From contig OZ245011.1 in assembly GCA_965223665.1 (NCBI GenBank), positions 352,001 to 416,000 of the forward strand: a stretch of DNA of 64,000 nt. Direction: 5' to 3'. The notes below the pieces were generated by a model. The model worked only from the letters and a program-made list of their open reading frames with translations, searched no databases and was not told the DNA's origin. The position numbers and the translations under genes are program-made. Shown here in pieces: positions 11,531-64,000 of this stretch. This DNA comes from Nitrospinaceae bacterium (GTDB taxonomy: Bacteria > Nitrospinota > Nitrospinia > Nitrospinales > Nitrospinaceae). How positions within the stretch are numbered: the stretch's first letter is position 1; each line of letters starts with the position of its first letter.

Positions 11531-14500
11531 ATGGCCGATAAAAAAATTGAGGGTATTTTTTCCTACCATGAACAAACCAAGCACCGTTATCAAGGGTATG
11601 CCAAGGGGCCTGGCCATTTAGATTGGGCTACTCAGCCTAATCCCTTTCGTCGTTTTCAGGAGGCTCCGCTGGTTTATTTACCTCCTATAGTTGAAGATGA
11701 ATCCCCTCCTTATTTCAAATTATTTGAATCTAGCCCAATTCCTTCCCAGGAAATTAATGTTTATCAGATTTCCCGATTTTTAGAATTATCTTTGGCAATA
11801 TCAGCGTGGAAACAAATGGGTGATTCGAAATGGGCCTTGAGGAGTAATCCATCTAGTGGAAACTTACACCCAACAGAAGGTTACTTAATTTTGGATTCGT
11901 TAAAAAATGTCCATAATCAAGCGGGGGTTTATCATTATGCCCCTGAGGAACATGGGTTAGAAAGAAGGACAGAGTTTTCTTCGCAATTGTTTAATGAATT
12001 AATAGAAGAAGTTCCGAAAGATGCCTTTTTAATGGGTCTTACTTCCATTCACTGGAGAGAAGCCTGGAAATATGGAGAGAGGGCTTTTCGTTATTGCCAA
12101 CATGATATTGGTCATGCCCTGGCTGCTTTAAGAATTGCGGCCGCAGTTCTGGGGTGGAATTTGATTTTAATTGAAGCTATAAGTGACATGCATTTGTCCC
12201 AATTGTTAGGCTTGGACCGTAAGGGTGATTTTTTAAATGCAGAATTAGAGCACCCTGATTTACTTGCTATTGTTACGAATTGTAAAACATCTAATGTTGT
12301 AACCAGTGGAATAAATACTGTTGCTCTAAACAAAATTGTCGATCAACCCTGGTTTGGAAAAGCTAATCGTCTTAGCTCTAATAATCGTATTTGGGATGCG
12401 ATTGACTTTGCAGCAGAGCATTCAATAAAAAATGAATCCAAATCTCTTAATTCTAATTTTCAAAGAACTTCTTATTCATTAACAAATTTTTCTTTAGAAT
12501 TGCGTCAAGAGAGAATTTCTTGCAGACAAATTATTCGCCAAAGAAGAAGTGCGGTTTCTTTTGATGGGGTTACTGGATTGACCGATCAGCAATTCTATTC
12601 AATTCTAATTCAAACCATTCACAATATTCCCTGGGATTGCACTACTTGGGAGCCTCGGATCCATCTGGCGTTATTTGTTCATCGAGTAAAGGGGATAAAG
12701 CCAGGCCTGTATTTTTTAGTGAGAAATAATTTAAAACTGGAAAATTTGAAAGAATCCATGAAGTCAGAATTTGTTTGGGAGAATCCCTCTGGTTGTCCAG
12801 ATGATTTAAATCTTTATTTGTTGCAGGAAGGTTCTTTTCAAACAATTGCATCCCGCGTGAGTTGTAATCAAGATATCGCCGGCCAAAGTGCTTTTAGTTT
12901 AGGGATGATTTCGGACTTTTCTTCTCCAATTAAAAGTGAGGGAGCTTGGTACTACAGAAGATTATTCTGGGAATCTGGAATGCTAGGTCAGATGCTTTAC
13001 TTAGCTGCCGAGTTTTCTGGTTTAAGGGGTACAGGGATTGGCTGTTATTTTGATGACCCGGTTCATGAAATTTTGGGCCTTCAAGACAACAGCTTTCAGA
13101 GTCTATATCATTTTACCATTGGAGGCGCAGTAGAAGATAAGCGATTATCTACTTTGCCATCTTATACCTGGTCGTGTGATTTGGTTCGTCCAAGGTTTGT
13201 TTCAAGAAATTCTGGTTGTGAAATAAATCCCAGTCAAAGGATTTTGAAAAGTTTGCCAGAAAAAGCAAAAGTGTCATGGAGGGGAAGGGGGTTATCCAGA
13301 ATTGGATTGGGTACAAGAAACTTTAGTTTGATAAACTCACAACACGAAACTTCTTTAATGTCCTATCTTAAGGGGCCAATGAATGTTGTTGAGGTTTCGC
13401 CGGATTGGACACATGGATCGGATGAGATATTATTGGGTGACTGTATAAATAAAACTTTGGAATCGGAATTAATGGAGGCTGAAGCCCTTTTTATAATTTC
13501 TAGAACAGGACCCGTACGGGGAAATAATTTAAGAATGTTTGAGGAAATGAACCGTCGTAATCAGCCTATTCCAAATATTTTTGATTTAAAGGAAGGTTTA
13601 GGCCATTGCCTCCACCCGGAGTTCCTCAATGACCAAATGTTAAGGTCTATACATCGTATAGGTTGCTCAAGTCTGGATTTATTACTAGTAGATGTGCCTT
13701 ATGCACTAGTAAAAATTCTGGGTAAGGTGGAATTGTTTAAACAATTAAAAATGTCCTCAGAGTTTTTACAAATGCAGTGTCAGAAAGGGAGATTGAAGGG
13801 GTTCGGAGTTTCTTTAGGTGATTTATTTCCAGAAAATGAAAACGCACCCTGGTTTACCCCTAAAGAAATTTTTCAAGTGTTTAGGGAGTTCCAAGGATTT
13901 CAGGCTGTAGAATTAGTAGGAAACTTTATAGAAAGCAGACCCTTTAAGGAATTCAATGGGAACAAATCTTTTATCCAAGAAATCAAAGAGAATGGATTGC
14001 TAACATTAGTTGGTACACCACTAAGAGCCCATTATGAAGGGCGAGAAATTTTGTTGATTGATTATCCAAATATCGAGGAAATAGATTCTGAAGCTAAATG
14101 GGATTGGGTACTGGGTGAGCTAGAATCCACAACAAACCAAATTCATTTATCTTCAATGGCGGATGGCAGAACATTAAAAGAGGTATTACAGGCCTCGGGG
14201 ATATCTTCACCGTTTTATTTTCGTCGGGCGGTTGAAACAGCTCAAAAATTTCAACCTCAGAATTATGATCAAGTAAATCAAGTGGAACAAAATATAAATA
14301 ACCTCTATTTACGTGCACGTGGGTTGGGTGAACAAGTTGTGCAAGCGCGGTTATGGGATCCCGCGCATTTTGATGAAAAGATGAATGAGGCGCATGAATT
14401 GTTAGACTGGGTAATACAATGTATTAAAATTCGTGGAAGCCAGGGAGAATCGAGCTTTTATGATGAAATTCGAGATAAGTATTTCCCAAACCTTAGTAAC

Positions 14501-14623
14501 GACATTTCTTTGCAGACCTTGGGAATATTGTGGTTATTTGATCATGGTGTGGATATTGTTCTTAATGGTATGAGGCGACAAAGTTATATCAACGAAGCTA
14601 AGGCAATATTAGAAGGATTGTAA
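11531..14623 (+). CDS. SagB/ThcOx-family tandem nitroreductase fused to a degenerate aldo/keto-reductase domain
   Basis: N-terminal ~545 aa: YHEQTKH, LRSNPSSGNLHP, WREAWKYGERAFRYC, RQRRSA, GTGIGCYFDD. C-terminal part: SRIGLGT, HCLHPEFLNDQ..RS..R.G...LDL, VLNGMRR (AKR-like). Confidence 0.8.
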   Translation: MADKKIEGIFSYHEQTKHRYQGYAKGPGHLDWATQPNPFRRFQEAPLVYLPPIVEDESPPYFKLFESSPIPSQEINVYQISRFLELSLAISAWKQMGDSKWALRSNPSSGNLHPTEGYLILDSLKNVHNQAGVYHYAPEEHGLERRTEFSSQLFNELIEEVPKDAFLMGLTSIHWREAWKYGERAFRYCQHDIGHALAALRIAAAVLGWNLILIEAISDMHLSQLLGLDRKGDFLNAELEHPDLLAIVTNCKTSNVVTSGINTVALNKIVDQPWFGKANRLSSNNRIWDAIDFAAEHSIKNESKSLNSNFQRTSYSLTNFSLELRQERISCRQIIRQRRSAVSFDGVTGLTDQQFYSILIQTIHNIPWDCTTWEPRIHLALFVHRVKGIKPGLYFLVRNNLKLENLKESMKSEFVWENPSGCPDDLNLYLLQEGSFQTIASRVSCNQDIAGQSAFSLGMISDFSSPIKSEGAWYYRRLFWESGMLGQMLYLAAEFSGLRGTGIGCYFDDPVHEILGLQDNSFQSLYHFTIGGAVEDKRLSTLPSYTWSCDLVRPRFVSRNSGCEINPSQRILKSLPEKAKVSWRGRGLSRIGLGTRNFSLINSQHETSLMSYLKGPMNVVEVSPDWTHGSDEILLGDCINKTLESELMEAEALFIISRTGPVRGNNLRMFEEMNRRNQPIPNIFDLKEGLGHCLHPEFLNDQMLRSIHRIGCSSLDLLLVDVPYALVKILGKVELFKQLKMSSEFLQMQCQKGRLKGFGVSLGDLFPENENAPWFTPKEIFQVFREFQGFQAVELVGNFIESRPFKEFNGNKSFIQEIKENGLLTLVGTPLRAHYEGREILLIDYPNIEEIDSEAKWDWVLGELESTTNQIHLSSMADGRTLKEVLQASGISSPFYFRRAVETAQKFQPQNYDQVNQVEQNINNLYLRARGLGEQVVQARLWDPAHFDEKMNEAHELLDWVIQCIKIRGSQGESSFYDEIRDKYFPNLSNDISLQTLGILWLFDHGVDIVLNGMRRQSYINEAKAILEGL

Positions 14624-21814: not shown

Positions 21815-24070
21815 TTACTTTAAATTGTACTGTGATTTTGAATAAACAGGTTGTATCGAAGGCAACTGATCAGTTGATTTTAATTGGATTAGGTTAGAAT
21901 AAGCCCCTGAATGTTTGGGGTTTATAGATAAGGCGGTTTGAAAAGCCTCAAAAGCTGCTTTTTTGTTGTTAGTATTCAAATAATACTCTCCCAATGAAAA
22001 ATAAATATCTTCATCCTGGGGATTATTCTTTAAAGCCTTTTTTAAAGTGTAAATAGCTTCCCAATATTGATTCATTTCCCCTAAAGACCAAGCGATATTT
22101 TTATAAAGTTGGCTGTTTTGAGGATACTTTTTCAAGGCTTTTTTAAAAGTTTGTATGGCCTCCTGATGACGTCCCAGTAATTCGTAAACGAGTCCCAATT
22201 GATTTAAAGATTTTAAGTGGTCTTTATCGTATAAAAGTGCTTTTTGAAGGGCGTCTATGGCTGTTTCATGACGACTCAAAATTGTATTTATTTTCCCGAT
22301 CTGATAGTACACATTTGCTTTGCTGGGACTCAATTCAATTGCTTTTTGGTAAACATTTAAGGCTTCTTCGTATCGATCAAGTTTTAAAAAAGCTGTGGCT
22401 AACCCAATTAACAGTTTTTGATTTGTAGGTTCTTTTTCCAAGGATTTTTCATAAGGGAAAATAGCCAGTTTAAATTGATGGGTTTTTAGATAATTTTCAG
22501 CAATCAACTTTTGGGCTTTTAAATTGTCAGGCTGTTTTTGAATAATTTTTTTTAGATAAAATATTCCCTGCTTGGGTTGATTTAGATAAGAATAAGCAAA
22601 ACCCAATCCAAACTCCGCTCCAAAGTTGTTTGGAATTAATTTCAAAGATTTTAAAAAAGGGTTAATCGACTTTTTATAATTTGAAAGCTTTAAATATGCT
22701 TGTCCAAGGTATTGAAACCCCCATCCCAACTTTTTGTCTAACCGAGTTGCTTGTTTTAACGGGAGTATGGCCTCTTTATATTCTTTTGTAAAATAAAGTG
22801 ATCGTCCCAGATTGAACCAGGTTTCGGCTGAATTTTTATTGTGTTTTAAAGTTTCTCTTAATTCAGGAATAGCGTGAGCATATAGCTCCATTTCCAAAAA
22901 ACATTTTGATAGTTTTTCATGGGCCTCTTTGTGGTTTGGATTCAATCGAACCACTTCTTGAAAAGCAGATACTGCTTCAGGATATTGTTTTAAATCAAAG
23001 TTTATTTTGCCTATCTTATAAAAGGATTTTATGCTCTTAGGATTTACCCTGACCACTTGTCGGTATTGTTCAATGGCTTTATGGGGAAAGTTTAACTTTT
23101 CATAGGATTGGGCCATTTTATAATAAGCGGTCTTATAATTTTTGTTTAACCTAACAGCCTCTGCAAAATATTTATTGGCTTTTTTAAGATTTTGCAATTT
23201 ATAGTAAATCCAACCTAATTTATAAAAAGCTTTTGAGTCTTTAAACCTGACTTTGATCAATTTTTTATAAGGCTTTATTGCTAATTTTAGTTTTCCAAGG
23301 TTGATATAAGCTTTTCCTAAATACTCCAAAGCAATGTCATTACTTGGATAAATAATCAATGCATCTTTTAAAGGTTTGAGAGCCTGTTCGGAGTGTCCTG
23401 ATTTTACTAAGGTCCGCCCAATAGCGGCATGAATTGAGTGCAAATTTGGGGAGAGGTCCAAAGCTTCCTGATAATACATTATGGCACTTTGATATTTTTT
23501 TAAAGCCTCAAAGTTTTCCCCAAGCTCCAAAAGCCAATCTGGTTGGTTGGGGTCCAATTGTAGGGCCTTTTGAATTTCCTCAACAGCTTTTTGGTGGTTT
23601 TTTAGTTTTGAAAGGGTTGCTCCCAATGCAAAATGGGAAGAGGCCAAATTGGGACTTAAATTAATTGAGGTTTCAAGGTGTTCTTTAGCTTTGGAATAAC
23701 GTTGCAATAAACGGTAAGCATTTCCTAAACCATATTGAGCTTCAGGATAATTGGGATCCAGTTGCACAGCCTCTAAATAAGATTGAGCCGCTTTTTTATT
23801 TTTATGTAAGGCAAGGTAGCTTTCGCCCAAATGAAAATAGGCTGATGGAAATAGGGGTTCTAATTCAATTACTTTTTTATATTCTTGAATGGCTTCTTTA
23901 TATAATCCCATTTGTTCAAATGATCGGGCTAAACCAAAATGCGCCAGGTGGTCATTTGGGTTGGTTTTCAAGACCATTTTATAATCTTGGACACCCAAAA
24001 AATCCGCAAAACATGGAGAAAAAGTTCCCAAAATCCAAAAACAACTGAATGCGATAAATAGTTTTTTCAA
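21815..24070 (-). CDS. Secreted multi-TPR protein (~20 repeats)
   Basis: Signal peptide followed by continuous 34-aa TPR periodicity (LG..Y...A...Y..A...P). Confidence 0.88.
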   Translation of the reverse strand: MKKLFIAFSCFWILGTFSPCFADFLGVQDYKMVLKTNPNDHLAHFGLARSFEQMGLYKEAIQEYKKVIELEPLFPSAYFHLGESYLALHKNKKAAQSYLEAVQLDPNYPEAQYGLGNAYRLLQRYSKAKEHLETSINLSPNLASSHFALGATLSKLKNHQKAVEEIQKALQLDPNQPDWLLELGENFEALKKYQSAIMYYQEALDLSPNLHSIHAAIGRTLVKSGHSEQALKPLKDALIIYPSNDIALEYLGKAYINLGKLKLAIKPYKKLIKVRFKDSKAFYKLGWIYYKLQNLKKANKYFAEAVRLNKNYKTAYYKMAQSYEKLNFPHKAIEQYRQVVRVNPKSIKSFYKIGKINFDLKQYPEAVSAFQEVVRLNPNHKEAHEKLSKCFLEMELYAHAIPELRETLKHNKNSAETWFNLGRSLYFTKEYKEAILPLKQATRLDKKLGWGFQYLGQAYLKLSNYKKSINPFLKSLKLIPNNFGAEFGLGFAYSYLNQPKQGIFYLKKIIQKQPDNLKAQKLIAENYLKTHQFKLAIFPYEKSLEKEPTNQKLLIGLATAFLKLDRYEEALNVYQKAIELSPSKANVYYQIGKINTILSRHETAIDALQKALLYDKDHLKSLNQLGLVYELLGRHQEAIQTFKKALKKYPQNSQLYKNIAWSLGEMNQYWEAIYTLKKALKNNPQDEDIYFSLGEYYLNTNNKKAAFEAFQTALSINPKHSGAYSNLIQLKSTDQLPSIQPVYSKSQYNLK

Positions 24071-24182
24071 TAGGTTTCCCTCAATATCAGTTCTTTTCTC
24101 CTATCGGCATTTTTATCTAAAAAAATAGTGTGTGGTTAATAAATTGAGGTGGAATTGAAAAAACTGATCTAATGGTACTGAA

Positions 24183-25199
24183 TTAGCCTTGCTTACGATG
24201 AAGTTGATACTTACGGACGGCAAAATTATGGTCTTTTAAATTATTTGAAAATTGGTGGCTTCCATCTTGTCGTGAAACAAAATAAAGATGGTTGGTTTGG
24301 GCAGGTTGGATCGCGGCATGTATGGAAGCCAACCCGGGATTCGCAATGGGGCCAGGGGGCAGACCAAAATGCTTATAAGTATTGTACGGTGAATCAATGG
24401 ATAAATCTTTTTTTCTAATATTCCCATCAAAATGAGCCATGGCATAAATTACCGTTGGATCGGTCTGGAGTCGCATTCTTTTCTCAAGGCGATTATGGAA
24501 AACAGAAGAAATAATTTTTCTTTCGGAGTCCAATCCGGTTTCTTTTTCGATAAGAGAGGCTAAAGTTATCACTTCATGAAAGGTTAACCCTGATTCTTTT
24601 ATCATTTCTTTAGTTGATGGATTCAAAACCTTTTCTTTAAATGTATCAACCATTTTCTCAATGATTTTTCGCTCTCCAGTGTTTTTGCTGAAACGATAGG
24701 TTTCTGGAAAGAGGTATCCTTCTAAACTCTCTGCAGATATTTTTAAAGATTTAATTAATTCAGAGTTTTGTGTTTCTGAAATAAATTTTTTAGAATTGAC
24801 TAAGCCTTCTTTTTCTAAAATCGACGCAATTTCAGCAATGCGATGGCCCTCTGGTATGGTTACGGTATGTAGATGGGTACGGCCGTTGGAAATAATATCC
24901 AGGATTTCGTATGGTGTCATTTGCCCTGATAATTGATATTCACCCGCTTGAATGTGGTCTTGCTTTCCTTGAAAATAGGTGAACATCATGAATTGTTTTT
25001 CACTTGAAATTATTTTCTTGGATTCTAATTGATGGGAGACTTGACGCAACGTTGTTCCATTAGGAATTTCTAAAACTGAAAGATTTGAAGGGATGTTGCT
25101 TGGGGAAAATGCGAAATTATAAAGGGTGCCAACAATAGAAATACATAGAACAACAACTAATATTGCTAAACCCACTAAAAATTTTTTTATGGTTCGCAT
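24183..25199 (-). CDS. mltG: Endolytic transglycosylase MltG
   Basis: TIPEG, LEGYLFPETY, ASLIEKE, LQTDPTV, SPYNTY, GLPPGPI motifs. Start may be the TTG at 25214. Confidence 0.93.
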   Translation of the reverse strand: MRTIKKFLVGLAILVVVLCISIVGTLYNFAFSPSNIPSNLSVLEIPNGTTLRQVSHQLESKKIISSEKQFMMFTYFQGKQDHIQAGEYQLSGQMTPYEILDIISNGRTHLHTVTIPEGHRIAEIASILEKEGLVNSKKFISETQNSELIKSLKISAESLEGYLFPETYRFSKNTGERKIIEKMVDTFKEKVLNPSTKEMIKESGLTFHEVITLASLIEKETGLDSERKIISSVFHNRLEKRMRLQTDPTVIYAMAHFDGNIRKKDLSIDSPYNTYKHFGLPPGPIANPGLASIHAAIQPAQTNHLYFVSRQDGSHQFSNNLKDHNFAVRKYQLHRKQG

Positions 25200-25254
25200 A
25201 AAAGGAATCCCCAAATGTTGGATAATTTATGAATCGGCAATTTTGGGGTTTGCC

Positions 25255-40789: not shown

Positions 40790-41713
40790 ATGAAGAACAA
40801 ACATTTGGTCTTTGGCGTTATTGGTTGTTTTTTTATATCAATTTTATTTCTGTTAGTCATTGTCTGGGAAATCAAAAAATCTATTGATCATGATAAACGG
40901 ATTCGGACTTTAGCGGCAAAATCTAAGGAAGTTACCATTCAGGACAACCGAGACTTTAGTATATACGAAACCTTGACAGGTGATGATAATCGGGAAATGA
41001 TTTTGGTCCCCGAAGGAGTTTTTACTCGAGGCTCACTAGAGGGTGGATTCGATGAAAAACCGCAACAAGAAATTTATCTTGACGCGTTTTATGTTGATAA
41101 GTATGAAGTAACCGTCGAATCCTATAACCAATTCCGTAAAGCTGCAAACTATGTAGAACCTTCTGTACCCTTTTTTCAGGGAGACTATGAGATGCTGAAA
41201 ACCCCTAATTTCCCGGTAGTCGGGGTTTCCTGGTACGATGCGGTAAATTACTGCACCTGGGCAGGAAAGCGACTTTTGACTGAAGCAGAATGGGAAAAGG
41301 CTGCACGTGGTACGCATGGATTAGTTTATCCCTGGGGTAACGATATGCTTCCCAAAAGAGCGAATATTTCGGGAACAGCAGATGGATTTAAATTTATGGC
41401 ACCTGTAGGTAGCTTTCCTATGGGTCGTAGTGTATATGGAGTTTATGATATGGCAGGTAATGCTTCTGAATGGGTGCAGGATTGGTACAGTCAATTTACC
41501 TACGAGGAATCTCCCATGATCAATCCCACAGGAGCAGGAAAAAGTAAAAATCGTGTTTTTCGAGGTGGTTCCTGGGATGCACGTAAAGTGGATATACGTT
41601 CCGCGAAACGCTTTGCCGCAACTCCGGGCCGAAAAGATAGCATTGTGGGTTTTCGTTGTGGTAAATCCGTAGTTCCTAAAAATTCCCAAGGCGCCGGAAA
41701 GTCTAAAAGTTGA
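40790..41713 (+). CDS. FGE-sulfatase (SUMF1/EgtB/PvdO-like) domain protein with N-terminal TM anchor
   Basis: KYEVT, PVVGVSWYDA, RLLTEAEWEKAARG, DMAGNASEW, RGGSW, GFRC. Confidence 0.88.
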   Translation: MKNKHLVFGVIGCFFISILFLLVIVWEIKKSIDHDKRIRTLAAKSKEVTIQDNRDFSIYETLTGDDNREMILVPEGVFTRGSLEGGFDEKPQQEIYLDAFYVDKYEVTVESYNQFRKAANYVEPSVPFFQGDYEMLKTPNFPVVGVSWYDAVNYCTWAGKRLLTEAEWEKAARGTHGLVYPWGNDMLPKRANISGTADGFKFMAPVGSFPMGRSVYGVYDMAGNASEWVQDWYSQFTYEESPMINPTGAGKSKNRVFRGGSWDARKVDIRSAKRFAATPGRKDSIVGFRCGKSVVPKNSQGAGKSKS

Positions 41714-44550
41714 CGGATGTTCTTTTCTTGAATCGATCCCAATATAAATTTTGGATATTTGCGTTTTTCTTTATTTCAGGGGCTTCTGGACTGATTTATG
41801 AAGTAGTTTGGACGCGACTTTTAACCTTGGTAATGGGAAATACACATTATTCTGTGTCTACAGTTCTGACAACCTTCATGACCGGGCTTGCTCTGGGGAG
41901 TTATTTTGGGGGGAAGTTCATTGATCGTGGTGGGCGTCCTTTATTTTTATATGGCATTTTAGAAGGTTCGATAGGCCTTTATTGTCTTTTAATTCCCTTT
42001 TTGATTGATGGAGCATTGCCTGTTTTTCAATGGATTTATGCAAATTTTCAAAATTCTTACGCCACAGCAAGCCTTTTACGTTTTCTAATTTGTTTCTTAA
42101 TTTTAATCATCCCTTCCTTTTTCATGGGGGCTACTTTACCTATCCTGGGAAAATTTGTTTCAAATGACCCAGAAGTAATAGGTCGTGATGTAGGGACCCT
42201 TTATTCCCTTAATACTTTAGGAGCGGTCGTCGGTGCTTTTGCGAGTGCGTTTTTATTGATGAAAAATTTTGGGATTTCCAACACTATTTTAATCAGCGCG
42301 GGTCTTAACATTTCAATTGCGGTTATAATTTTAGTTTTTCTAAATAAAAGTTCTTATAAAAATATTTCTTCCAATGAAGACGAAGTAAACTCTGCCGAAT
42401 CAGCTAAAAAATTTACTCCTGAAATGTTATTAATTCTTTTGGGGTTTGGTATTTCCGGAATTGCTGCGCTAATTTACCAAGTCACCTGGAATCGAATTTT
42501 CTCCCTTCTCTTAGGTTCTTCTGTTTATGCGTTTAGTTTAATTTTAACTGGTTTTATTCTAGGTTTAGCTTCTGGGACGATGATTTTTTCTCGAATATGT
42601 CATCTCTTTAAAGATTTACAAAAGGTTTTTGGATTGCTTCAAGTGGGTATTGGTTTATCCGCTTTAATCGCATTGCCTTTTTTCGGGAATATTCCAATGG
42701 TGAATCGATGGGTATATCTAAATTGGGGTTTAGATTTTGTTTCTATTCAAGGAGCCAATTTTTTAATTATTATAACTTTAATCTTTATACCCACTTTTTT
42801 GATGGGTGCCCAGTTTCCCGTGGTTGTAAAGCTTATTGCTAAAAAACTTGAAACTTTGGGACACCATGTAGGTACTGCTTATGCTTCTAATACCATTGGA
42901 ACTATTCTAGGTTCATTTTTAGGAGGATTTCTTCTTATACCCTGGTTAGGAATTCAAGGGACAATAATGTTTGCAATCTTTATGAATGTAGTTTTGGGGG
43001 TAATTTTGCTTTTTGGATCCCAAACCTTATCTTCAATTACAAAAGCCTATGTTCTTCCTGGTCTCATTTTCTTAGTCTTATTTTCTCCAAAAGTTATTAA
43101 GCCGTGGGATAAAGCAGTCATATCCAGTGGCTCATTTATGCCCTATAGAATTGATGATTTAAAAGAAGCAATTCAGCAGAATAATAAGATTCTTTATTAT
43201 AAAGAGGGAACTCATACTACGGTTACTACTGAATTAGCAGTTACAGGGAATATTTTTCTTCGGGTAAATGGAAAAACTGATGCTTCGCTGGCAATGGATA
43301 TGAGGACTCAGTTGCTTTCTGGTTATTTGCCAATGTTTTTTGCAAAAGACCCACAATCAGTTTTAGTGGTGGGTCAAGGTAGTGGAGTGACTTTGGGTGC
43401 CGTGGAGCAATTTCCAGTTAAAGAAATTGACTTGGTAGAAATTTCTCCCGCAGTTATTGAAGGAAGTCAATATTTTGAACCATTCAATCACCAGGCTTTA
43501 AAAGATCCCAGAGTTCGTTTAATTCTAGAAGATGGAAGAAATCATATTACACTTACTGAAAAAAAATACGATGTGATCATTTCTGAACCATCAAATCCTT
43601 GGATATCTGGTGTTGGGGCTTTATTCACGCAGGATTTTTATAAGTTAGTGCGCCCGAGATTGAATCCGGGTGGAATTGCTTGTATCTGGATGCATACCAA
43701 TATGTCTCCTGAAAGTTTTAAATCGATATCAAAGGCATTCCATTCCGAGTTTCCCTTCGTCACTATGTGGGAATCCATAGTAGGGGATGATTATCTTTTG
43801 ATTGGTTCTGATGCTCCTTATACGATTCCTTATGAAAGAGTAAGACGTTTAATTGAAGATTCAATACAGGGTAGGGATTTGCGGAGGCTTGGAATCAGAA
43901 GTGTTAGGGATCTTATGGGACTCATGATAATGGATCAGGCCAACCTAAAAAAGTTTATTAAATCCGCTCCAATTCATACAGATGATAATTCATTATTAGA
44001 GTTTGGCGCTCCGGAATATATCTATAAGGATGAAAGGCATATCATTGTTCAGCAATTAACGCCTTTTTTCCAAACTTTTCCGGAAATATTAAGATTTGAA
44101 GAATTGCCCATTGATAAGCAGAAACAGGTTAGAAAAGAAATTGCCTCTTTGGATCGGTCTGAAATTCAAGTTAGGGAGATAAAACGAAAAGCCAGGATCG
44201 ATCAATATTTGGATCAAGCGGTGGAAGCGGTCAACCGTGGTGGTTTAGAAAAAGCGGTCCAGTTTTATAAAAAGATCCTGGAACAGGAGCCTGATCATAT
44301 TCTAACGCATTTAAACTTGGGTAATATTTATTCGGAAATCCAGGAGTATCAGTTGGCTGAAAAGGAATATTTAACAACATTAAAAATAAATCCCTATTAT
44401 GTGTTTGGAAATTTAGCGTTAGCAAGATTGTATTTGAAAACTCAAAAATCTGAAAAAGCCATCGAGGTGTTGGAAGATGTTTCGAAACTTTTGCCACATG
44501 ACAAAGATATTGCAAAATTTTTGGATATTGTGCGTAAGAAAAAGGCATGA
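41710..44550 (+). CDS. Fused multi-TM (MFS-like) / spermidine-synthase-like SAM domain / TPR protein
   Basis: Two SG..ALIY.V.W.R TM repeats, VNGKTD, VGQGSGVT, VEISP, EDGRN, DVIISEPSNPW, C-terminal TPRs. Confidence 0.85.
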   Translation: MTDVLFLNRSQYKFWIFAFFFISGASGLIYEVVWTRLLTLVMGNTHYSVSTVLTTFMTGLALGSYFGGKFIDRGGRPLFLYGILEGSIGLYCLLIPFLIDGALPVFQWIYANFQNSYATASLLRFLICFLILIIPSFFMGATLPILGKFVSNDPEVIGRDVGTLYSLNTLGAVVGAFASAFLLMKNFGISNTILISAGLNISIAVIILVFLNKSSYKNISSNEDEVNSAESAKKFTPEMLLILLGFGISGIAALIYQVTWNRIFSLLLGSSVYAFSLILTGFILGLASGTMIFSRICHLFKDLQKVFGLLQVGIGLSALIALPFFGNIPMVNRWVYLNWGLDFVSIQGANFLIIITLIFIPTFLMGAQFPVVVKLIAKKLETLGHHVGTAYASNTIGTILGSFLGGFLLIPWLGIQGTIMFAIFMNVVLGVILLFGSQTLSSITKAYVLPGLIFLVLFSPKVIKPWDKAVISSGSFMPYRIDDLKEAIQQNNKILYYKEGTHTTVTTELAVTGNIFLRVNGKTDASLAMDMRTQLLSGYLPMFFAKDPQSVLVVGQGSGVTLGAVEQFPVKEIDLVEISPAVIEGSQYFEPFNHQALKDPRVRLILEDGRNHITLTEKKYDVIISEPSNPWISGVGALFTQDFYKLVRPRLNPGGIACIWMHTNMSPESFKSISKAFHSEFPFVTMWESIVGDDYLLIGSDAPYTIPYERVRRLIEDSIQGRDLRRLGIRSVRDLMGLMIMDQANLKKFIKSAPIHTDDNSLLEFGAPEYIYKDERHIIVQQLTPFFQTFPEILRFEELPIDKQKQVRKEIASLDRSEIQVREIKRKARIDQYLDQAVEAVNRGGLEKAVQFYKKILEQEPDHILTHLNLGNIYSEIQEYQLAEKEYLTTLKINPYYVFGNLALARLYLKTQKSEKAIEVLEDVSKLLPHDKDIAKFLDIVRKKKA

Positions 44551-61078: not shown

Positions 61079-61804
61079 CTAGTCTAAATTACCTATAATT
61101 TTCTTTTGAATTTCAATCAATTCCTGTATTCCCTTGTTGGCTAAGGTCAACATTGCTTCCATCTCCTTTTTTCCAAAAGGGTCTCTTTCTGCAGTACCTT
61201 GAATCTCAACAAATTTGCCTTTCCCGGTTTTGACAATATTCATGTCAACTTCTGCGATAGAATCCTCGCTATAATCCAGATCTAGAATCTTATTTCCTTC
61301 AAATATTCCTACACTGGTAGCCGCCACAAAATCTTTTACCGGAATTGATTCAATTTTCTGATTTTTCTTTAATGATTTTAATGCTAGACAAAGGGCTACA
61401 AAAGCACCTGTGATGGATGCCGTTCTAGTTCCGCCATCTGCTTGAATTACATCGCAGTCAATCCATATGGTTCTTTCTCCAAGTTTTTCCATATCGATTA
61501 CACTTCTAAGAGACCGTCCAATAAGTCTTTGGATTTCTTGAGTACGGCCAGAAACTTTTCCTCTGGATGATTCTCTTGGGGTTCGGGAATGTGTTGCTCT
61601 TGGAAGCATTGAATATTCTGCGGTGACCCAACCGTGATTAGAGTCTCTTAAAAAAGGCGGAACCTTTTCATCAACGCTTGCATTGCAGATCACTTTAGTA
61701 TTTCCTACTTCAATTAATACGGAACCTTCTGCATGCTTGATGAAATTCTTCTTAATGGAAACTGGTCTCAGTTGTTGAGGGGAGCGTCCGTCATTTCTGA
61801 TCAT
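61079..61804 (-). CDS. rph: Ribonuclease PH
   Basis: [41 protein letters not shown]. Likely start is MIRNDGR at 61804. Confidence 0.96.
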
Positions 61805-62096
61805 TATGACCTCTGTCTTTGAATTAGAGATGATAGGGGTATCCTTTAAGGAAATCGAAAATTTGAAGGGCATAAAATATCAGGATTTGTATATATTATC
61901 AATCAATTCCCATGTTGATTCTTTGTGTTATTTGTAAATAATTTTGGAAAATAAGGCTCAATCAAGAAATAAATTGGGAAATGGATGGTTAAATGCAGAA
62001 AGGACTTGATATTTAGTTATATAATTGATTATAAAAGGGAAACCCGTTACTCTGAATTTAGGTTCCAATATTAATTATATGGAGATAAATTAGCGC

Positions 62097-64000
62097 ATGG
62101 ACTCTTATTTTCAAAAGGGTGTAACGCTCAAAGGAGTATTACGTTCCAAGGGAGTTGTCCACATGGAAGGCGATATGGAAGGGGAAATTATATCCTCTAG
62201 TCATTTAATTGTCGGAAAAGGTGGAAACGTAAAGGGTGATATCGAATCTTATGACATTACAAATATGGGGTCTATTAAAGGAAACATAAATGCCAAAAAT
62301 AAAGTTTCCTTAATGGATGATAGTCATTTGGATGGTGATATTGCTACCTACCAATTGATTGTGGAGGAAGGTTCAAATTTTGAAGGAAAATGTAAAATGC
62401 TAGGCAAAGCTCCTTCAGAAAAAAAAACTCCAAAATCCCCAGAGAAGAAAAATGGAAAAGGAAGCGATCCTTCTTGGGAGTCTCTTCAGCAAAACCTAGA
62501 TCAGATTGGACTGCCCCAAAAGGACAGTAAAGCTGATAAAAAAGAGCCGGAAACTGCAGCTGCTCCCAAAAAGAGTTTTTTTCCAAGAATTTTGACTAAA
62601 TTAACTATGTTGGTTTTGGGAGTTGCGGTTTTGGCCATGATAGGTCTGAATTTGCCTTTTTCCCCCGATGAAGATGTCGGGGGATTTTTGAGTAAAGGAA
62701 GGGAGTTAATAAAAAATAAGCAATATGCGGATGCTGAATCTGTATTTAACGAAGGTATAAAACAAGTTCGTGATAATCCTGAGTTACATTTAGAATTGGG
62801 AAATATTTACTTACTAAAAAAAAACTTTAAGAAAGCTTTAGTTGAATTTCAAAGATCTTTAGAAATAAATCCTTCCAAAGAAATCTACCGATTAAAACTA
62901 TCAGAAGCATTATTAGGATTAGGACAACTCCAAGAGGCTGAGAAAAATCTAAATGAATTAATAGAGAAAAACTCTAATAGTTTTAATGCTTACTATGGAT
63001 TAGGGCTTTTAAAAGTTAAGGCCGGCAAAAATCAGGAAGGCATTGCAGCTTTTCAGCAAGCCTCAAAAATTGATCCGGATAATTTCAATGTTCATCAGAA
63101 GTTGTTAGAAATTTTTCGTTCCGAAAAAAACCATTTGGATTCCATTCGAGAAATGGAGGAAATGGTTCGATTAAAACCTGAAGAACCTGGGCTTAGGCTA
63201 ACTTTAGGTGAAATGTATTTTGAAAATAAAAATACTAAAAAAGCTGCAGAGCAATTTCAAAAGGTTTTAAAACTTCATCCTGAAAACCAATTGGCCCAAT
63301 TAAGGGTTGCTGATTGGTATTACGAGGGAAAGATGTATGACGATGCTTTAAAACTTTATGAAACTGCTTTGAAAAAAAATCCAGATAACCCAGATATACA
63401 GGTAAAATTAGGAAAGATTTACCTTCAAAAAAGAGATAAAGCCAATGCGGAGCTTGCCTTTCGAAAAGCGGAAAAGAGTAAAACACAAAATAGCGAAGCC
63501 TATTTTGAGCTTGGTAAAATTTTAACTTCAGATTTGAAATATGATGAGGGTCAAAAACAATTTGAAAAAGCGATTGAATTGAATCCTAACTATGGGGATG
63601 CTTATTACGAACTGGGAAAAATATGGGAAGTAAACGAAAAAATGGGAAATGCCCTCCAATATTATGAAAAGGCGGTGGAATTTGAACCTAAAAATACGGA
63701 ATACATTTTTTCTCTCGGAAAAACATATATAGAAGAGAAAAAATTTGATAATGCAGTAAAATTTTTGAAAACTGGGATTAAAATTGAACCTAATAACGGA
63801 AATTTAATTTTTCAGCTATGCAGAGCCTATCGGAAAAAAGGTTATTACACGATTGCGATCAGGCATTGTGAGAAAGCTTTAAGTATTATTCCAGAATCAG
63901 ATGCTGTAAATAATCGATTAGCATGGCTTTATGCCAAAAAGCAGAAAAAACTTGATAAAGCTTTAAAAATGGCCCGGAAGCTTGTGATCAAATACCCAGA
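62097..64000 (+). CDS. Bactofilin-domain / TM / multi-TPR fusion protein (3'-truncated, absent from the ORF track)
   Basis: Manual translation is open from ATG 62097 (GGAGA upstream) to the window end. MDSYFQKGVTLKG...HMEGDMEGEI...LIVGKGGNVKGDI...IKGNINAKNKVSL...LDGDIATYQLIVEEGSNFEGKCKM, then a TM at ~62590-62660, then TPRs. Confidence 0.85.
   Translation, partial: MDSYFQKGVTLKGVLRSKGVVHMEGDMEGEIISSSHLIVGKGGNVKGDIESYDITNMGSIKGNINAKNKVSLMDDSHLDGDIATYQLIVEEGSNFEGKCKMLGKAPSEKKTPKSPEKKNGKGSDPSWESLQQNLDQIGLPQKDSKADKKEPETAAAPKKSFFPRILTKLTMLVLGVAVLAMIGLNLPFSPDEDVGGFLSKGRELIKNKQYADAESVFNEGIKQVRDNPELHLELGNIYLLKKNFKKALVEFQRSLEINPSKEIYRLKLSEALLGLGQLQEAEKNLNELIEKNSNSFNAYYGLGLLKVKAGKNQEGIAAFQQASKIDPDNFNVHQKLLEIFRSEKNHLDSIREMEEMVRLKPEEPGLRLTLGEMYFENKNTKKAAEQFQKVLKLHPENQLAQLRVADWYYEGKMYDDALKLYETALKKNPDNPDIQVKLGKIYLQKRDKANAELAFRKAEKSKTQNSEAYFELGKILTSDLKYDEGQKQFEKAIELNPNYGDAYYELGKIWEVNEKMGNALQYYEKAVEFEPKNTEYIFSLGKTYIEEKKFDNAVKFLKTGIKIEPNNGNLIFQLCRAYRKKGYYTIAIRHCEKALSIIPESDAVNNRLAWLYAKKQKKLDKALKMARKLVIKYP

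Follow-up and report, generated by a model that had tools for sequence, protein, structure and literature searches.

How do bactofilin filaments reach the membrane, and how is their position passed on to enzymes of the periplasm? In every case studied to our knowledge, the filament is targeted by a short peptide that binds the membrane, and a bitopic client exists as a protein apart. A gene at the 3' end of the stretch of DNA analysed here (the window, 64,000 nucleotides from a genome of the Nitrospinaceae, G000:C1:352001-416000) raises the question of whether both tasks can be built into one protein, since it encodes a bactofilin domain, a single hydrophobic helix and a long array of tetratricopeptide repeats (TPRs) in one polypeptide. 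As set out below, this fusion is an uncharacterised, conserved variant of the bactofilin cytoskeleton, and in the Nitrospinota the link between filament and envelope would thus be hard-wired in one polypeptide across a phylum. We know of no work on how Nitrospinota build their cell shape or envelope. The phylum provides the ocean's main known nitrite oxidisers (PMC8026999).

One reading frame from the bactofilin domain to the TPR array

The open reading frame starts with an ATG at position 62097, runs on the forward strand to position 63998 and is still open at the 3' end of the window after 634 codons. This agrees with the original prediction, which had noted an uninterrupted frame of more than 630 codons and proposed that the contig be extended to obtain the C-terminus. 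In the genome, the frame is completed to a protein of 757 amino acids (L001:1501-3774; G000:C1:414097-416370), with the stop codon 370 bases past the end of the window. The start codon is firm: the preceding stop codon and the ATG are separated by just one codon, which makes an N-terminal extension impossible, a GGAG motif resembling a ribosome-binding site is located 13-16 nucleotides 5' of the start codon (62081..62084, forward strand), and the N-terminal sequence MDSYFQ is conserved in 20/20 orthologues of the family. A scan for promoters and terminators yielded no signal exceeding those of shuffled sequences.

The order of the parts, i.e., bactofilin domain, lysine- and proline-rich linker, one hydrophobic helix, TPR array and a Ser/Thr/Pro tail, is confirmed, and the first four of these had been proposed beforehand in the same order, now matched by Pfam, hydropathy and repeat register. 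The bactofilin beta-helix domain (amino acids 1-101, 62097..62399, forward strand) lacks an N-terminal tail and is predicted to be cytoplasmic. Pfam model PF04519 aligns with residues 5-100 over profile positions 3-98 of 98 (E 2.9e-22, 79.2 bits, cut-off 27.9; 83.8 bits in the genome scan), and the pattern LIVEEGSNFEGKCKM, with which the domain had been proposed to end after about 100 residues, corresponds to residues 87-101. When residues 1-110 were searched against the sequences in the PDB, BacA (2n3d, E 1.4e-8) and TtBac (6ria, E 3.2e-6) were retrieved. Across 19 orthologues of the family the domain contains 33 invariant columns, F95 among them.

The linker that follows (amino acids 102-163, 62400..62585, forward strand) was delimited by its composition, with 13 lysines, 8 prolines and a net charge of +4, as expected from the original description. 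It ends in the juxtamembrane motif KKSFFPR and is only weakly conserved in sequence, yet it is found in all long forms. Directly after it comes the hydrophobic helix, predicted to be transmembrane (TM; amino acids 164-190, 62586..62666, forward strand). Its peak Kyte-Doolittle mean over 19 residues is 2.21, and no other 19-residue segment of the protein exceeds 1.6. The sequence ILTKLTMLVLGVAVLAMIGLNLPF, already recognised as a single hydrophobic helix behind basic residues, starts at residue 165 with KKSFFPR before it.

The TPR array was assigned by its 34-residue register and by Pfam. Repeats 1-12 and most of repeat 13 (amino acids 196-634) occupy 62682..64000 on the forward strand, while the rest of repeats 13-14, a cap helix up to about residue 684 and a tail from residue 685 to residue 757 lie beyond the window (L001:3405-3774). 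In total, 14 contiguous TPRs span residues 196-672, followed by the capping helix and the 73-residue tail rich in Ser, Thr, Pro and Glu; the array as such had been predicted correctly, whereas its size had been put at only about a dozen repeats. Pfam TPR families match from about residue 200 (TPR_2, 8.3e-55; TPR_19, 5.6e-48; TPR_1, 2.5e-45). The best PDB matches of this region are consensus or engineered TPR proteins and the TPR superhelix of OGT, and this resemblance indicates a regular and continuous array. Beyond these consensus and OGT-type TPRs the PDB search of the TPR region provided no functional lead, and a search of the ESM Atlas returned generic TPR clusters only (best score 0.88).

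Repeats 12-14 are the best conserved part of the array throughout the phylum, with mean column identities of 0.51-0.61 as compared with 0.61 for the bactofilin domain; N606, R607, W610, D641, T642 and E645 are among the conserved residues. Matches outside the lineage were confined to the C-terminal TPR motif region, of which look-alikes occur by themselves, without a bactofilin part, in Planctomycetota, Verrucomicrobiota and other groups; one of them, a planctomycete protein of 927 amino acids (L121), has TPR matches only. The tail is variable. In genus g5 its acidic, Ser/Thr/Pro-rich sequence has a conserved (A)EEL as its last residues (alignment columns 701-785, L007-L017). This ending, which recalls C-terminal peptides bound by TPR clamps, is absent from the protein of the window, which ends in ETRIN, and from genus g2, which lacks the tail.

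Two other classifications of the protein were considered and rejected. The NCBIfam model for the magnetosome protein MamA (NF040959, model length 204) reaches 213 bits against a cut-off of 200, summed over five stretches of the 14-TPR array. The same model gives 387 bits for an unrelated multi-TPR protein of 751 amino acids encoded directly upstream of mltG and on the same strand (21818-25214, reverse strand), so it evidently fires on generic long TPR arrays. Membership of the MamA family was dismissed as an artefact of summing over repeats, and the gene neighbours are of the housekeeping type. Matches to the NCBIfam models for PilW, YbgF and NlpI are weak and all fall below the family cut-offs. 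An assignment as a bactofilin paralogue of the Leptospira LbbA-E set, considered on account of low GC content and a match to BatC_Lepto, was likewise rejected, as the orthologue with 90% identity is from the Nitrospinaceae.

Purifying selection acts on every part of the fusion. In comparison with the sister species (90% identity), the whole gene has a dN/dS of 0.089. Part by part, the ratio amounts to 0.05 in the bactofilin domain, 0.10 in the linker, 0 in the helix, 0.07 in the TPR array and 0.30 in the tail; the codons of the helix have accumulated 10 synonymous and no non-synonymous changes. Contigs from two public sequencing runs, X1 and X2, span the entire gene with zero insertions, deletions or joints. 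A stop or frameshift between the domains had been named in advance as a result that would speak against a fusion; these contigs show no frameshift there. Both runs stem from one study and possibly from the source sample, and the contigs are therefore not independent evidence. Several single-base strain variants cluster in them where the bactofilin domain gives way to the linker and within the latter (window 62336-62510, L001:1740-1914); contig breaks, but no indels, occur in this region.

Distribution and loss of the TPR half in the Nitrospinota

For a survey of the architecture across genomes, as suggested by the original prediction, 120 genomes of Nitrospinota were searched with residues 1-110, and stop-to-stop frames were tallied by hand. 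The orthologous domain heads an open reading frame of at least 400 amino acids in 83/120 genomes, which represent all 9 families of the phylum. In 14/120 genomes only a short frame of fewer than 215 amino acids is present, in 3/120 the gene is cut by contig ends, and 20/120 (completeness 57-97%) gave no orthologue-level match; two of the latter possess only a small f5-type bactofilin that is placed outside the orthologues in the tree described below. The presence of the helix was confirmed in 17 long forms from the window's own family and in 11 representatives of families f2-f9. Within the window's family the full-length form is found in 17/21 genomes and 4/5 genera.

Outside the collection of genomes the picture is the same. 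When 1.84 billion representatives were searched exhaustively by HMMER, the bactofilin domain serving as query, 11,459 matches were obtained at E values up to 1e-3. Among the 150 nearest matches, 37 proteins of at least 320 amino acids were checked with Pfam, and the order bactofilin, then TPR, was found in 36/37. A word-index search with residues 1-135 of an f4 orthologue returned 78 clusters, 77 of which contain both domains. All named relatives are from Nitrospina, Nitrospinaceae, Nitrospinales or Nitrospinota, 'Nitrospina sp. LS_NOB' and 'Candidatus Nitromaritima sp. SCGC AAA288-L16' being among the holders of the long form, save for exceptions by submitter label: seven metagenome-assembled genomes labelled 'Nitrospirae bacterium', two labelled 'bacterium' and one partial protein labelled Verrucomicrobiales. 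Five of the differently labelled genomes contain a bactofilin-headed frame of 561-669 amino acids. The architecture is real and, within the Nitrospinota, ancient. A common and already characterised architecture had been regarded beforehand as a point against the prediction. Common it is, albeit only inside the Nitrospinota, and no description of a bactofilin-TM-TPR fusion was found by title or abstract in the papers searched. Automatic annotation lists the protein as 'TPR repeat protein/cytoskeletal protein CcmA' at JGI, and the long forms at NCBI as 'tetratricopeptide repeat protein'.

The shortened forms are instructive. In genus g3, the same locus, flanked by rph and a gene for a Ca/Na antiporter, encodes a protein of 169-173 amino acids that consists of the bactofilin domain and a proline-rich tail ending in GNFFRQLFSG; neither of the helix nor of the TPRs was any trace detected there. 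Databases list identical sequences as 'bactofilin family protein [Nitrospina watsonii]' and as NITGR_800003 or 'Cell shape determination protein CcmA' of Nitrospina gracilis 3/211. Four short forms from family f4 (L040 to L043, from genomes G074, G071, G090 and G096, respectively) were inspected. In G096 and G090, the bactofilin domain, linker and helix are followed by a stop codon, in G090 with frameshifted remnants of TPRs downstream. In G074, the domain is joined to a TPR fragment and more remnants reside in other frames, and in G071 a TGA lies inside the bactofilin domain and the TPRs have decayed. Some of these frameshifts may be sequencing errors, as G071, G074 and G090 are single-contig assemblies.

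In a maximum-likelihood tree of the bactofilin domain (37 rows, 105 columns), the g3 short forms reside beside the window's genus (support 93/90) within the clade formed by the long forms of the family, albeit on a long stem branch (0.66). G074 falls within its long-form genus (94/93), G096 adjoins it (90/81), and the two small bactofilin paralogues of the genome under study are placed outside the orthologues. Since the tree nests the short forms in long-form clades, they are derived orthologues and go back to at least three independent truncations. The bactofilin half is retained where the TM-TPR half is lost, from which we conclude that it functions in its own right; most lineages keep the TPR half as an addition to it. 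Nature thus provides a deletion series consisting of the full-length protein, bactofilin plus helix only, and bactofilin alone, the last of these in cultured N. gracilis and N. watsonii, so that the contribution of the periplasmic half is directly testable.

Beside the truncated Nitrospina proteins (L022:1486-2004, reverse strand; L023:1501-2007, forward strand) stands the larger of the two paralogues, with 187 amino acids (L136:3713-4273, reverse strand) and the C-terminus KSLVSQLFSVG. The common ending QLFS-x-G may be a membrane or partner peptide. A related motif, FF plus basic residues, is present in the full-length forms immediately before the helix.

Predicted topology, proposed filament formation and the weight of the alternatives

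Does the helix carry the TPR array across the inner membrane? Topology was judged by hydropathy and by counts of flanking charges. No signal peptide was found in the fusion, whose bactofilin domain starts as early as residue 5. A helix of 18-24 residues is located at the same place in 17/17 long forms of the family and in 11/11 representatives of families f2-f9, such that a single hydrophobic segment is present in 28/28 proteins. When net charge was compared between the 15-residue flanks of the helix, the N-terminal side was the more positive one in 16/17 family orthologues and in 10/11 outside representatives, i.e., in 26/28, as expected for a bitopic protein with its N-terminus inside and its C-terminus outside. 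By the positive-inside rule, the bactofilin domain is predicted to be cytoplasmic and the TPR array probably resides outside the inner membrane, in the periplasm. The passage from cytoplasm to periplasm that had been proposed originally therefore fits the sequence.

A residue needed for polymerisation is in place. Bactofilin filaments are described as non-polar; N-N and C-C interfaces alternate along them, dimers repeat every 5.7-6 nm, and the interface between beta-stacks has a strong tendency to form (Deng et al., 10.1101/617639). In BacA, the conserved phenylalanine F130 is part of the C-terminal polymerisation interface and the F130R variant is unable to polymerise (PMC12448750), and exchange of F105 of TtBac to arginine blocks polymerisation as well (10.1101/617639). 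F95 of the fusion aligns with both residues in the PDB sequence alignments. It is invariant in 19/19 family orthologues, and the respective column in 19 long forms from the whole phylum contains 16 F, 2 L and 1 I. The phenylalanine of the polymerisation interface is thus retained in the fusion. As to the N-terminus, the invariant MDSYFQK offers a Tyr-Phe doublet and a lysine, but it has an aspartate at position 2, compared with the hydrophobic doublet plus basic residue of a targeting peptide. Deep-branching long forms (L132-L135 and L045 from families f5-f9), with 527-698 amino acids and fewer TPRs, carry a basic N-terminal extension (e.g., MRKRSKSEKSD...) that is lacking in the window's family.

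From this we derive a mechanism that we consider the best supported and, by a modest distance, probable: a filament, a membrane crossing and a periplasmic scaffold in one protein. The gene product would be a bitopic inner-membrane protein with its bactofilin domain in the cytoplasm. There, bactofilin domains would stack end to end to form a non-polar protofilament, in which the two small paralogues would perhaps take part. The flexible linker of about 60 residues would depart from the C-terminal end of the beta-helix, the single helix would span the membrane, and the superhelix of 14 TPRs would be exposed on the periplasmic side, where a partner from the envelope could dock on it. The protein would work like a bactofilin together with a bitopic client, as in CcmA-Csd5, BacA-PbpC or BacA-LmdC, with a peptide bond replacing the adaptor step. 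Because the subunits meet tail to tail and the linker exits at the C-terminal end, anchors and TPR domains would be expected to emerge in pairs, about every 6 nm. We infer a role in organising the envelope, be it cell shape, a growth zone or another periplasmic complex.

A more far-reaching version, to which we give only tentative credence, is a covalent trans-membrane cytoskeleton in which protofilaments on the inner face of the membrane template periodic, paired TPR superhelices in the periplasm with the spacing of about 6 nm, pass on position without an adaptor and so pattern envelope growth or a periplasmic complex. If this were true, the loss of the TM-TPR half would contribute to the long, straight and slender rods of N. 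gracilis and N. watsonii, as opposed to the curved or helical cells of other cultured Nitrospinaceae. The morphologies described are long slender rods for N. gracilis, helical cells for strain VA of 'Ca. Nitrohelix vancouverensis' and short curved rods for strain EB of 'Ca. Nitronauta litoralis' (PMC8026999).

Several observations weigh against the proposed mechanism. The beta-helix fold, self-association and membrane topology are all predicted from sequence. The canonical N-terminal membrane-targeting tail of bactofilins is absent, and a TPR superhelix on each subunit could sterically crowd the filament. The charge bias is reversed in one of the 17 family orthologues (L010), whose N-terminal flank is net negative, and the flanks are tied in one of the 11 outside representatives (L133); in three g2 orthologues, the helix is only moderately hydrophobic (1.28-1.46). 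The 14 genomes with short forms and the 20 without a match imply that some lineages can do without the TPR half. The TPR motifs NRLAW and YxDTLSE, conserved throughout the phylum, are also present in unrelated TPR proteins of Planctomycetota and Verrucomicrobiota and may therefore be structural rather than partner-specific. Finally, the gene resides among housekeeping genes that offer no functional link. Envelope-related neighbours, namely LpxI, a GH3 enzyme and a heptosyltransferase, occur in three deep families, one locus each, and are therefore no more than a weak hint.

How do other explanations fare in the light of these observations? That an assembly or sequencing error joined two adjacent genes is hardly conceivable: although the genome consists of few, long contigs, as in long-read assemblies, which can carry indels, the same unbroken frame recurs in 83 genomes and 77 protein clusters, the X1 and X2 contigs are free of indels and joints, and dN/dS is 0.09. 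The hydrophobic segment might only be a peripheral or re-entrant anchor, leaving both the bactofilin domain and the TPR array in the cytoplasm, where the TPR domain of LapB, for example, is located. The modest hydropathy of the three g2 orthologues and the fact that topology was deduced solely from hydropathy and flanking charges would leave room for this. We nevertheless consider it improbable, as the segment comprises 18-24 residues and is equally placed in all 28 long forms, with a mostly positive-inside charge distribution, and as the decayed forms G090 and G096 end right after the helix, consistent with an independent membrane anchor. Somewhat less improbable, but still doubtful, is a bactofilin domain that no longer forms filaments and acts as a small cytoplasmic module for oligomerisation or interaction, for example by clustering or dimerising a periplasmic TPR membrane protein. 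The missing N-terminal membrane-binding tail would be in line with such a role, and a bulky extracytoplasmic domain on each subunit is unusual in a polymer. On the other hand, the entire 98-position profile is matched, the phenylalanine of the C-C interface is kept, lineages without the TPR half still have an intact and conserved domain, an argument that it functions in its own right, and Deng et al. emphasise how strongly the beta-stack interface tends to form.

An alternative of a different kind concerns the direction in which information flows. The periplasmic TPR array may bind a pre-existing feature of the envelope, such as a peptidoglycan-associated or outer-membrane complex, and thereby fix the site of bactofilin assembly, much as Csd5 directs CcmA in Helicobacter pylori. 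CcmA is unable to reach the envelope without Csd5, whose periplasmic SH3 domain binds peptidoglycan (PMC9507126), and in the fusion the conservation of TPR12-14, the best conserved periplasmic part, equals that of the bactofilin domain. This possibility is worth keeping in mind, although we think it unlikely overall: the bactofilin domain is still under selection where the TPR half has been lost and hence can act without the anchor. Since the architecture is identical in both cases, sequence data cannot separate this outside-in landmark from a filament that positions a periplasmic scaffold, which remains the mechanism we prefer.

The genomic surroundings provide a marker of synteny rather than of function. 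Divergently from the fusion gene and outside the system proposed here lies rph for RNase PH (61079..61873, reverse strand; TIGR01966, 393.8 bits). The upstream flank comprises ilvC, ilvN, psd, pssA, accD, nth and rph, and a convergent gene for a Ca/Na antiporter follows downstream. The order rph, fusion gene, antiporter gene is kept in families f1, f2 and f4 and in the truncated Nitrospina loci. The genes for PBP1A, MltG and the 'LpoA-like' TPR protein, which had been put forward as candidate partners, are more than 37 kb away from the fusion gene without an operon link, and their involvement is a guess. Also in the window, and unrelated to the fusion, are genes for a fused protein of 946 amino acids of the MFS/spermidine synthase type (41710-44547, forward strand) and for a protein of 1030 amino acids with a SagB-family dehydrogenase domain (11531-14620, forward strand).

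The two further bactofilins of the genome comprise 145 and 187 amino acids; the identities of the pair to the bactofilin studied here are 35% and 30%. Both are encoded outside the window in a cluster (L136:3713-8648; G000:C1:2961000-2971500) comprising gidB, parA, parB, a bactofilin gene, genes for a tetrapyrrole methylase and a ParA-like protein of 438 amino acids, the second bactofilin gene and a gene for a YkuD L,D-transpeptidase. The arrangement recalls parAB-bacNOP-padC of Myxococcus, where bactofilins are associated with PadC and ParABS. This analogy suggests that the two small paralogues serve chromosome segregation, which would leave the fusion copy free for a role at the envelope.

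Comparison with known bactofilin and TPR systems

Periplasmic TPR scaffolds and adaptors are well known, among them NlpI, CpoB/YbgF, the N-domain of LpoA and PilF/PilW. The fusion shares with them a TPR array, here predicted to be periplasmic, that would dock envelope proteins. The likeness is that of generic TPRs, and none of these proteins is known to be joined to a cytoskeletal domain, which sets the fusion apart.

The general background given in the original prediction, namely that bactofilins are usually small, peripheral proteins recruiting bitopic clients, agrees with the literature (PMC12448750, PMC9507126, PMC10945521). TM helices are by no means foreign to the family, as about 3.2% of the bactofilins in UniProt have such helices at the N-terminus (PMC12448750). 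The fusion resembles this Proteus mirabilis CcmA type in being an integral-membrane bactofilin. However, in the P. mirabilis type the helices precede the domain and a large extracytoplasmic domain is not mentioned in the descriptions consulted, whereas in the fusion the helix follows the domain and leads into the TPRs. The part of the bactofilin literature covered here makes no mention of a helix that comes after the bactofilin domain and continues as a large extracytoplasmic scaffold. With BacA (2n3d) and TtBac (6ria) the fusion has in common the same beta-helical domain over its full length and the phenylalanine of the C-terminal interface. These two proteins comprise 120-190 amino acids and are peripheral, with an N-terminal membrane peptide, while the fusion lacks an N-terminal tail and has a predicted TM anchor on the C-terminal side as well as about 560 extra residues.

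The same logic is found in pairs of a bactofilin and a client, i.e., CcmA-Csd5, BacA-PbpC of Caulobacter crescentus and BacA-LmdC of Hyphomonas neptunium and Rhodospirillum rubrum, in each of which a cytoplasmic bactofilin is coupled via one helix to an envelope domain in the periplasm. Csd5 of H. pylori, a transmembrane protein, binds CcmA on the cytoplasmic side and peptidoglycan via its periplasmic SH3 domain (PMC9507126), PbpC is recruited via its N-terminal peptide (PMC12448750), and LmdC is a bitopic M23 peptidase bound to BacA via its cytoplasmic tail (PMC10945521). In all of these pairs the components are separate proteins that are linked through a short peptide in the cytoplasm, and an SH3, penicillin-binding or M23 domain makes up the periplasmic part. 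In the fusion, by contrast, the link is covalent and 1:1, and the predicted periplasmic part is a non-enzymatic scaffold of 14 TPRs. With a link hard-wired in this way, each filament subunit would come with one periplasmic scaffold as a fixed ratio, and the beta-helix would be attached to the membrane at its C-terminal instead of its N-terminal end.

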